DNA of 48,579 nucleotides, from NCBI GenBank assembly GCA_043764015.1, contig JAYUKY010000057.1:1-48579 (forward strand), written 5' to 3'. The position numbers were made by a program, and so were the translations under genes. Below are positions 7,928 through 8,052 of this stretch, in pieces. Every line of letters begins with the position of its first letter. Within the stretch, counting starts at the first letter, position 1. This stretch comes from Raineyaceae bacterium (GTDB taxonomy: Bacteria > Bacteroidota > Bacteroidia > Cytophagales > Thermonemataceae). Under the pieces are notes generated by a model. That model searched no databases. It saw nothing but the letters and a program-made list of their open reading frames with translations, and was not told where the DNA came from.

Positions 7928-7962
7928 GAGTTGTAAGTTGTAAGTTGTGAGTTATGAGTTAC
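7928..7962. repeat. Tandem heptamer array GAGTTGT-AAGTTGT-AAGTTGT-GAGTTAT-GAGTTAC
   Basis: Seen directly: 5 consecutive 7-bp units immediately downstream of the RM gene start region. Confidence 0.7.
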
Positions 7963-8022
7963 AAATAAGGAATGAAAATTAAATACTTTTTTTAAAGAAT
8001 AATTTAATAATCAAAGTTTTAC

Positions 8023-8052
8023 ATTCGTACTTCGTACTTCGTACTTCGTACC
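8023..8052. repeat. Tandem heptamer array (ATTCGTA)(CTTCGTA)x3
   Basis: Seen directly: 4 consecutive 7-bp units just downstream of the stop of the symporter gene. Confidence 0.7.

Follow-up and report, generated by a model that had tools for sequence, protein, structure and literature searches.

Why should the genes of a bacterial contig so often begin or end in a short run of tandem heptanucleotides, and what might such runs do? The question is raised by a 48.6-kb stretch of DNA from a Raineyaceae bacterium (contig JAYUKY010000057.1 of assembly GCA_043764015.1, positions 1 to 48,579, hereafter the window), which is AT-rich (31-35% GC) and consists of ~84% coding and 16% intergenic DNA. The original prediction had described arrays built from eight heptameric units at a series of its gene boundaries, most of them paired with a reverse-complement array into long hairpins that would behave like bidirectional terminators. 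What we observe directly is the anatomy of the arrays, their polarity, their turnover and the conservation of their hairpins: the arrays share one degenerate heptad and one orientation relative to genes, about half of them are unpaired, and stems persist between relatives while their units change. With somewhat better than even confidence, we regard them jointly as lineage-specific heptanucleotide simple sequence repeats (SSRs), made by slippage and dispersed in a composite, whose paired stems would resemble repetitive extragenic palindromes (REPs) at the RNA level.

Arrays were called with Tandem Repeats Finder (TRF) at period 7, low-complexity sequence being excluded, and were also catalogued by hand (Table 1). 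TRF returned 17 arrays of 2.4-5.6 copies each, every one of them (17/17) intergenic or overlapping the last codons of a gene, and the hand catalogue holds 24. A scan for period-7 self-matches covered 240 intergenic bp against 1 coding bp, and autocorrelation, scored relative to dinucleotide-preserving shuffles, peaked in intergenic DNA at 7, 14 and 21 nt (z = 4.7, 3.4 and 5.6); coding DNA displayed the codon period of 3 only and no period 7. Arrays were found at every boundary listed by the original prediction, and TRF, autocorrelation and anatomy alike confirm its strict 7-bp period at gene ends, together with the intergenic enrichment that it had proposed to look for, here assessed over the 48.6 kb. 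Its rejection of a CRISPR array also stands: the 7-bp units directly abut and no cas genes lie within the window. Coding mini-ORFs (open reading frames) were ruled out on anatomy, and assembly artefacts are excluded because four independent assemblies of one related species (L089-L092) are 100% identical through the arrays. In Rfam 15, searched at the gathering threshold and at E<=1, no family fits the arrays and the transfer-messenger RNA (tmRNA) alone passes; the heptamer hairpins gave sub-threshold, look-alike matches to plant and animal microRNA precursors.

The FabH protein of the window assigns the stretch to the Cytophagales, its best match being L001, a contig of a metagenome-assembled genome (MAG), at 92% identity, and the next matches, which are to Cytophagales, standing at ~75%. 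The window was compared with L001 and with two further congeneric contigs, L093 and L089, which are syntenic with it, were reached through homologs of its class IV aminotransferase and display 84-96% and 84-95% nucleotide identity to it, respectively. A broader set comprised 79 non-congeneric Cytophagales loci totalling 1.41 Mb, relative to which array density in the window is ~14-fold higher (16 per 48.6 kb versus 33 per 1.41 Mb). A metagenome scan with the ParA-like protein returned distant relatives only, of at most 47% identity, and a viral scan for three tandem GTACGAR units gave four unrelated matches (giant-virus MAGs and a 66% GC contig), with no sign of phage-borne arrays.

In-register alignment of 78 units from 23 arrays yielded a single degenerate heptad, GARKTRY, with G at position 1 in 76% of units, R, K, R and Y at positions 3, 4, 6 and 7, and T at position 5 in 97%; A occupies position 2 in 100%, this being the position on which the register was chosen. 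The eight units of the original prediction are real, but they are not independent of one another, all being variants of GARKTRY. They fall into families A (GAGTTGT/AAGTTGT/GAGTTAT), B (GGTACGA/AGTACGA), C (GAATTAC/GAATTAT, on the minus strand at 22830-22859) and D (GATGTGT/GATATGT versus ATCACAC/ATCATAC). None of the 78 units contains GGG, and families A, C and D are even devoid of GG; G-quadruplexes (G4) are ruled out because the units carry no G-runs. None of the TRF arrays is a tandem of TAACTGA, the nearest unit being TAACTCA (7927-7962, minus strand). The genes that flank the arrays have functions unrelated to one another.

Polarity, pairing and turnover of the arrays

Read on the plus strand and scored by purine content, arrays on the left side of a spacer are purine-rich and those on the right side pyrimidine-rich in 17/17 cases (p = 1.5e-5); scored by G>C the figure becomes 15/17, both deviating arrays belonging to family C and having almost as much C as G, and the hand-catalogued arrays conform throughout (24/24). 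Relative to the genes, GARKTRY reads along the coding strand just 3' of a stop codon in 17 arrays, 14 of which begin 0-5 nt from the stop while three overlap the coding end, and its complement is the coding strand just 5' of a start codon in six to seven. Four of the five TRF-called leader arrays are G-free on the sense strand and the fifth has a single G. Counted by spacer class, and with small numbers in each, TRF arrays occupy 1/9 divergent, 4/9 convergent and 6/16 tandem spacers, and those of the hand catalogue 1-2/9, 6-8/9 and 7/16, respectively.

The same polarity holds in L089, L093 and L001, as well as in L007 and L011, other low-GC Cytophagales MAG contigs rich in arrays (GAATGGT, GAATTAG, GAATTGG), those of L007 having their own distal motif, GAAACAGCCAAA. 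Among the 79 non-congeneric loci, 19 of the 24 arrays located <=50 nt from an ORF end obey it (p = 0.007), and several Spirosoma genomes have arrays directly after fabH. The overlap of the array at 16611-16640 with the end of fabH in the window, described in the original prediction, is real: the FabH C-terminus reads into the array, whereas it ends in WAYNA followed by the stop in the nearest relative, and therefore the array has become the last codons. L007 and L011 also contain long degenerate arrays of TTTGAAC/CTTGAAC/CTTAAAC upstream of genes (L007 116-337, ~29 copies; L011 3164-3290), a different family, whose units depart from GARKTRY. The provision of stop codons in all frames, considered as a reason for trailer arrays, holds for families A and D and fails for B and C; mRNA circularisation by pairing of the 5' and 3' arrays of one gene was rejected, these arrays not being complementary in the four genes inspected by eye.

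A distal non-repeat motif, (G)AATACAAA, accompanies 11 of the 23 arrays, often with the palindrome TTGATWATCAA after it, and AATACA follows 11 of the 23. The conserved anchor reads TTGATWATCAA-N3-TTTTGTATTC, and its palindromic part occurs in the window at 22 sites (<=1 mismatch) against 3.4 expected. In all eight anchor-bearing copies (8/8) it is the heptamer side that points towards the adjacent gene and adjoins it, an arrangement for which we see no explanation in random insertion. A ~60-bp composite, TTAATAATCAAAGTTTTACATTCGTACTTCGTACCTCTTACTTCGTAC, was aligned in six copies at non-orthologous sites of three genomes: in the window after the symporter gene (8000-8052) and, inverted, before the WYL gene (11820-11875), after plsX in L093, at 1467 in L001 and, as diverged copies, at 37030 and 46160 of the window. 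Copies agree in how their variant units are ordered, and therefore at least the B-type arrays have also spread within a small repeat. Exact copies of TTGATWATCAA lie at 11865, 34421, 46161 and 47089; the motif is mostly intergenic, often 3-4 nt from TTTTGTATTC and an array, and, resembling part of a Fur-box-like sequence, could be a candidate regulator binding site.

The RNA folding energy of each junction was compared with that of shuffled sequence. Six junctions fold far better than shuffles (z -3.0 to -12.7), all with the purine arm 5' and the pyrimidine arm 3' on either strand, and their stems are AT-rich, periodic and 25-35 bp long. The predicted pairing of most arrays with a reverse complement holds at these six, but about half of the arrays are unpaired (solo arrays at 9711, 11820, 16611, 18494 and 46131), and the claim of a long hairpin at each junction is only partly right. 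The very site chosen to illustrate it, 7928-8052, folds no better than shuffles (z +0.15), its arrays, the G-free leader of a restriction-modification (R-M) gene and the trailer of the symporter gene, belonging to non-complementary families (GAGTTGT versus TTCGTAC); 22705-22863 does not exceed shuffles either (z -1.2). Several hairpins do lie between convergent genes, as had been proposed, but that of the plsX-fabH spacer, itself correctly foreseen, and that between an outer membrane protein (OMP) gene and the aminotransferase gene separate co-directional genes. These two stems begin 0-8 nt from the upstream stop and end 0-9 nt before the downstream ATG, their orthologs ending 4-11 nt before it. 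At 29093-29168 and at L089 7542-7607, a lone variant unit occupies the same ordinal place on both arms (a b a a / a' b' a' a') and not the mirrored position, which therefore leaves an internal mismatch in the stem; this may hint at how arms are copied, or be due to chance.

Could the paired arrays be bidirectional intrinsic (Rho-independent) terminators? Six highly stable stems stand immediately past stop codons, three of them between convergent genes in short spacers without any other candidate terminating structure, and TTTTTATATTTTT follows 17574-17645 in the reading from the ParA side. Five short spacers (60-91 bp) consist of the heptamer hairpin alone, with no other structure to define a 3' end; spacers with unpaired arrays do hold other terminator-like structure. 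However, a T-run is missing on at least one side in 5/6 heptamer hairpins, those other than 17574-17645 having none after the 3' arm in either direction, and a generic scan of 7000-26900 for terminators and promoters, of sigma-70 type and ill-suited to Bacteroidota promoters, reports none of the heptamer stems. Canonical terminators, with an A-run, a GC-containing stem and a T-run, follow fabH and the tmRNA gene and also occur in the spacers 34336-34478, 36938-37083 and 46094-46244, where they sit between two heptamer arrays. Canonical terminators are distal to the arrays in these three spacers and to the solo arrays at 16611 and 18494, so that all these arrays would lie in the 3' untranslated region (UTR), between stop codon and terminator, without forming the terminator. 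Solo arrays make up half of the total, and the two co-directional hairpins end within a few nucleotides (0-9 nt) of the start of a gene that is probably co-transcribed (plsX-fabH). Because most hairpins have no U-tracts and canonical terminators are nested between arrays, bidirectional termination is no general explanation, and we consider it unlikely for the paired arrays too.

Orthologous spacers reveal how these elements change. Between the OMP and aminotransferase genes, the window has an 89-bp family A hairpin (z -5.7), L093 a 99-bp family A hairpin whose two arms carry other, mutually matching unit variants (-43.1 kcal/mol, z -8.8), and L089 an 86-bp hairpin of family C, CAATTAC/GAATTAC (-33.4 kcal/mol, z -8.6). 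In the plsX-fabH spacer, the family D hairpin is kept in L089 (z -4.3) and survives as remnants only in L093 and L001, L093 having an inserted element instead. Between the ParA-like gene and its unassigned neighbour, L093 combines the same loop with changed arms (-29.6 kcal/mol, z -7.4). The fabH trailer array of the window is echoed by related units after the stop in L001 and is absent from L089 and L093, and the trailer array of the SpoIIE-like gene differs in length among the three genomes (window, L093 and L089), with ~2.5, 2 and 1.5 units. The unit-number variation anticipated for slippage was found in four spacers when the window was set against L093, L089 and L001, and a stable stem is kept at three orthologous spacers despite replacement of the units or of the family. 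Since units change or swap family while stems persist, this gain and loss of whole units points, at the level of sequence comparison, to slippage as the generating process and to a degree of selection for structure. The SpoIIE-type phosphatase gene itself (18513-19652, minus strand) is split in the window into two ORFs (109 and 248 aa) and is a single intact 379-aa gene in L089 (8687-9826) and L093 (2434-3573); the split is probably a frameshift or pseudogene, or else a sequencing error.

Possible origin and role of the arrays

The reading that we favour would run as follows. In a low-GC Cytophagales genus, the arrays would occupy the transcribed flanks of genes, where slipped-strand mispairing would make and remodel them, and they would spread in a composite in which the palindrome TTGATWATCAA is followed by TTTTGTATTC and then by heptamers. 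Where the same unit family stands at both edges of a short spacer, the arrays would pair into a 25-35-bp stem starting from the stop codon, which could serve as a REP-like 3'-end barrier, pause site or attenuator for the upstream gene. In the co-directional pairs (plsX-fabH and OMP-aminotransferase), the stem would in addition mask the unstructured leader of the downstream gene until a terminating ribosome melts its base. Judging from ribosome footprints, a ribosome that terminates on the upstream gene covers roughly the first two heptads; in the leader downstream it would expose precisely the last two. In Bacteroidia, translation starts without Shine-Dalgarno pairing, and mRNA structure tunes initiation (PMC6847099); a G-free leader arm would therefore be tolerated and a hairpin over the leader would matter. 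By the same token, the geometry of the co-directional stems would suit translational coupling or masking. We infer that the arrays are transcribed and, with modest confidence, that they combine a REP-like 3' element with a mask over the leader of the next gene. If the initiation mode of Bacteroidia holds in Cytophagales, the paired arrays would provide a clean test of coupling versus insulation of neighbouring genes.

Several points weigh against this reading. Hairpin formation is not the reason for the existence of the arrays, because about half of them are unpaired, and arm complementarity is not strictly kept, because the window OMP-aminotransferase hairpin has two extra unmatched units. 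The polarity is independent of gene orientation and could equally come from a DNA-level process, or it could arise simply from the architecture of a palindromic element with a purine arm 5' and a pyrimidine arm 3'. UTR status, 3' ends and effects on expression are predictions made from the DNA, and the genus is represented by ~85 kb of sequence only. Moreover, Rehm et al. found no regulatory role for analogous repeats (PMC4692102).

The arrays might alternatively represent tails belonging to a small element, mobile or dispersed, akin to REPs and bacterial interspersed mosaic elements (BIMEs) or to miniature inverted-repeat transposable elements, solo arrays then being half-elements. The composite TTAATAATCAAAGTTTTACATTCGTACTTCGTACCTCTTACTTCGTAC at non-orthologous sites of the window (two conserved and two diverged), L093 and L001 and the strong enrichment of the anchor motifs speak for such an origin, and a reverse-complement-symmetric element (purine arm, AATACA, loop, TGTATT, pyrimidine arm) would give the polarity automatically. 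We hold it possible but doubtful, as no transposase, target-site duplication or fixed element length is seen, random insertion would not put heptamers 0-5 nt from a stop or start every time, families A, C and D have no long stretch in common outside the repeats, orthologous spacers differ by entire units, as expected of slippage, and Rehm et al. saw no association of analogous repeats with mobile elements (PMC4692102). Regarding REP/BIME features, the composite is dispersed and B units hold an internal GTAC/GTAG, no terminal tag or fixed palindrome was found, and none of the proteins encoded in the 48.6-kb window matched the REP-associated tyrosine transposase (RAYT, Y1) family. We grant a similarly tentative place to the absence of any function, the arrays being slippage-prone junk that fills unconstrained bases, with selection removing harmful orientations only: G-containing leader units would create starts or structure, and units rich in C but poor in G would load Rho when placed past a stop. 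The leader arrays accord with this, four of five being G-free with one G in the fifth, and G-free arrays cannot hold ATG, GTG or TTG; arrays also abut or erode coding ends, come and go rapidly between close relatives, accompany functionally unrelated genes and have no function found in other phyla (PMC4692102). Such neutrality sits poorly with hairpins that persist at three orthologous spacers (~84-96% nucleotide identity) despite unit replacement and with the 14-fold density over related genomes, which suggests a lineage-specific driver, and it leaves the conserved anchor unexplained.

Positions A2 and T5 are nearly invariant over the families while others vary, which resembles a recognition motif more than pure slippage, and the heptads could thus form a 7-nt-register platform for a single-strand nucleic-acid-binding protein (cold-shock/oligonucleotide-binding fold, S1 or RNA recognition motif) controlling translation or mRNA fate. 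MacGregor proposed S1, cold-shock (Csp) or CsrA-like binders for TAACTGA, CspB binding as one protein per heptamer (PMC4679880), and the leader unit TAACTCA is one base off that sequence. This nevertheless appears improbable to us: no candidate protein was identified within the window, a single RNA-binding protein cannot read both strands because these are used in different contexts (5' versus 3'), and the family swap at an orthologous spacer, where the hairpin survived, argues that structure, not sequence, is kept. We give little credence to a reading in which the anchor and the pyrimidine-strand array form a promoter of Bacteroidota type (-7 box TAnnTTTG), followed by a repetitive leader. 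TTTG does stand ahead of arrays (ATACTTTGTATTC) and four copies precede genes (9752, rpoZ, the WYL gene and the start at 23787), but the match to TAnnTTTG is imperfect with a spacing one short, the palindrome is too close for a -33 element, and 5/8 copies are directed at a convergent or upstream gene from its 3' end, so that antisense RNA would result; the sigma-70-type scan is uninformative for this phylum. A bolder joint reading, which we judge very improbable as a whole, would see the arrays as punctuation for non-Shine-Dalgarno ribosomes, with coupled termination and re-initiation, directional generation from the anchor and one cross-phylum mechanism. A stem nucleated at the stop, with the purine-rich trailer and the next gene's G-free leader as its arms, would be melted by the terminating ribosome; between convergent genes it would set the 3' end; and arrays would be generated from TTGATWATCAA-N3-TTTTGTATTC through a slippage process of their own, primed by a nick or a protein, and not through random slippage during replication. 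Were this true, the orientation rule found in Xanthomonas, Nostoc, Beggiatoaceae and Cytophagales would go back to a single shared mechanism that needs no G4.

Sites and other loci of the window

Table 1. Heptamer arrays and hairpins of the window, with their anchors and gene context
Position	Strand	Element	Gene context	Energy (kcal/mol)	z
7927-7962	+	Family A, 5 units; on the sense strand of the R-M gene a G-free leader, TAACTCA/CAACTTA	3 nt from start of MmeI/Eco57I-like R-M gene 4552-7923(-)		
8000-8052	-	Family B x4 at 8024-8052; distal anchor TTAATAATCAAAGTTTTACATTC at 8000-8023	Starts 5 nt past stop of SDF symporter gene 8058-9305(-)		
9688-9745	-	Anchor CTGATTATCAA-N3-TTTTGTATTC, then ATTCACA-type array, nearly G-free (one G, in an ATTCGCA unit)	Ends 6 nt before ATG of leucine-rich repeat (LRR) gene 9752-10675(+)		
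10678-10750	.	Family B hairpin	Convergent genes; left arm begins 2 nt past stop of 9752-10675(+), right arm overlaps last 4-5 codons of WYL gene (stop 10736-10738, minus strand)	-37.1	-8.2
11820-11875	+	Family B GGTACGA AGTAAGA GGTACGA plus anchor GAATGTAAAACTTTGATTATCAA	6 nt upstream of probable WYL ATG (11813, minus strand)		
15528-15610	.	Family D hairpin	Fills plsX-fabH spacer, from plsX stop to 9 nt before fabH ATG	-31.6	-6.2
16611-16645	+	Solo array GAAGTAG/GAGGTAC	Over last 7 codons and stop of fabH; canonical terminator distal, at ~16690-16725		
17574-17645	.	Family A hairpin; loop carries AAATACA ... TGTATTT	Convergent ParA-like gene (stop 17572) and 17646-18359(-)	-16.0	-3.0
18471-18512	-	Anchor TTGATAATTAA-N3-TTTTGTATTC, then ATTCACA array; no partner arm	Abuts stop of SpoIIE-like ORF 18513-18842(-)		
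20743-20829	.	Family A hairpin	Co-directional minus-strand genes; purine-rich arm begins at OMP gene stop (20830), G-free arm ends 2-3 nt before class IV aminotransferase ATG (20740)	-27.8	-5.7
22725-22773	+	GAATTGT x3.7 plus anchor GAATACAAAATATTGACAATCAA	G-free rpoZ leader (gene 22324-22704, minus strand), ATG 20 nt away		
22830-22859	-	Family C; not complementary to 22725-22750 in minus-strand RNA	4 nt past stop of BamD-like gene 22864-23787(-)		
23873-23892	+	Minimal copy, GAATTGT GAATGAATACAAAA	Divergent spacer		
29093-29168	.	Family B hairpin	Convergent genes; arms overlap or abut both stops (28321-29094 plus; 29169-29858 minus)	-39.3	-8.7
34336-34364	+	GAAGTGT/CAGATGT/GAAATGT	From stop of 1420-aa type IX secretion system (T9SS)-tail surface protein gene; canonical terminator 34380-34410		
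34421-34476	-	Anchor TTGATTATCAA-N3-TTTGTATTC, then family C array	Ends 2 nt from gldC stop (34479-34817, minus strand)		
36938-37083	.	Family B arms 36938-36960 and 37045-37083, enclosing a canonical bidirectional terminator (~36990-37032)	Each arm abuts the stop of a convergent gene	-72.7	-12.7
46131-46171	+	Short family B GGTACGA AGTACGA plus ATAAAAC plus TTGATTATCAA palindrome	37 nt past stop of 45632-46093; canonical terminator distal, at 46177-46210		

Judging from the array at 11827-11849, the WYL-domain gene probably starts at ATG 11813 and not at the upstream TTG. The window also contains dispersed palindromes other than heptamers: a second hairpin family, the 31-bp palindrome AACTTCCCGAAAGTTGGAAACTTTCGGGAAGTT, lies after two different genes (1709-1739 and 4517-4547), and a third comprises the long inverted repeats GGTCTGTACCGTAG...CTACGGTACAGACC and TTGCTACCGTACACA...TGTGTACGGTAGCAA, found at 22165-22225 and 25170-25335 and, in the distant Cytophagales MAG L007, at 3265-3390.

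Three gene loci deserve mention. Just downstream of the tmRNA gene (38565-38937), 39242-41770(+) encodes an 842-aa protein with the major vault protein (MVP) shoulder domain PF11978 (E 3.5e-27) and the vault repeat domain PF17795, and looks like a bacterial MVP-like gene from its domain content. A perfect 8-bp tandem repeat, TTTGCAAT x4.6 (42022-42058), stands upstream of two small paralogous ORFs (69 and ~66 aa; 42110-42540), each with a signal peptide, a common QVNAQNER motif and a Cys-rich C-terminus, and further downstream lie the genes of two paralogous 414-aa proteins without Pfam match (42626-43870 and 43909-45153); together they may form a secreted-peptide or bacteriocin-like locus. 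The gene 30073-34335(+), which encodes a 1420-aa surface protein with fn3, He_PIG and a T9SS C-terminal sorting domain, has 40-41% GC against ~31% in its surroundings and may have been horizontally acquired.

Comparison with known heptamers and other repeats

The arrays belong to a known but functionally unsolved class, that of intergenic heptameric SSRs with gene-end polarity, for which neither the function nor the reason for a 7-nt unit has been found in 35 years. Rehm et al. (2015) described G-rich heptamers in two Xanthomonas species (GGGAATC) and in Nostoc PCC 7120 (GGGGAYT) that lie nearest to an ORF on their 5' side whatever its orientation, and whose G-rich strand is the coding strand 0-50 bp past stops, including overlaps with the stop, and the non-coding strand before starts (PMC4692102). 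These repeats are rare between divergent ORFs and occasionally form inverted pairs; their length and sequence vary between sister species, and most are transcribed, with no function identified (PMC4692102). Units with GGG(G) runs form G4 in vitro, and this study, the only detailed one, interpreted the polarity on that basis (PMC4692102). The arrays of the window share the 7-nt unit, a typical number of ~4 units, the intergenic bias, the polarity, the depletion in divergent spacers and the functionally unrelated neighbours. They differ in that their units (GAGTTGT, GGTACGA, GAATTAC, GATGTGT) have no G-runs and no G4, that inverted pairing is common (six junctions in 48 kb), that many arrays carry a distal anchor or palindrome, and that they occur in another phylum, without Shine-Dalgarno use. 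Because the same polarity, depletion and turnover are displayed by units unable to form quadruplexes, the G4 explanation of the polarity is weakened; polarity without G4 points to selection on untranslated leaders and trailers or to a directional generating mechanism.

A second related system comprises the TAACTGA direct repeats that MacGregor (2015) reported from marine Beggiatoaceae, from cyanobacteria and from five Bacteroidetes, Flexibacter (Bernardetia) litoralis among them, in 2-6 copies, a few nt upstream of start codons and in forward orientation (PMC4679880). In F. litoralis, 12 of 14 sets are forward and upstream of starts and one is reversed after a stop; other heptamers occur in the same Bacteroidetes spacers, and close relatives have no arrays at the same spacer (PMC4679880). 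The leader unit TAACTCA is one base apart, whereas 17 of the 24 window arrays follow stops rather than precede starts and many are paired in hairpins; that paper describes no general polarity rule, common degenerate heptad or anchor motif (PMC4679880). The short tandemly repeated repetitive sequences and long SSRs of cyanobacteria (Mazel 1990; Mrazek 2007) are likewise multicopy, non-coding tandem heptanucleotides with lineage-specific units, which differ from ours (CCCCAGT, TTGGTCA, CAACAGT). As relayed by later papers (PMC4679880, PMC4692102), Mrazek (2007) found heptamers to be the most over-represented long SSRs and proposed polymerase slippage as their source.

Rho-independent terminators resemble the paired arrays in being stem-loops directly downstream of genes, and differ from them in that the window stems are 25-35 bp long, AT-rich, periodic and mostly devoid of a U-tract, with genuine terminators present in the same spacers. 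We think that the REP/BIME elements of enterobacteria and pseudomonads are the closest match to the presumed working of the paired arrays. REPs lack U-tracts and act as barriers to 3'-exonucleases, and those within ~15 nt of a stop codon interfere with terminating ribosomes; functional data on REP elements were reportedly obtained by Newbury in 1987 and by Liang, Rudd and Deutscher in 2015. Like our arrays, REP/BIME elements are dispersed and multicopy, form short imperfect palindromes and reside in 3' UTRs between convergent or co-directional genes; unlike them, they have no tandem heptads, carry GTAG or CGTC as a terminal tag and owe their mobility to RAYT transposases (Di Nocera 2013, PMC3733652). 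Within the literature searched, three features of the window arrays may be new, namely the single degenerate heptad behind all families, the conserved anchor or palindrome with its dispersed composite, and a polarity that persists in a lineage without G4 potential.

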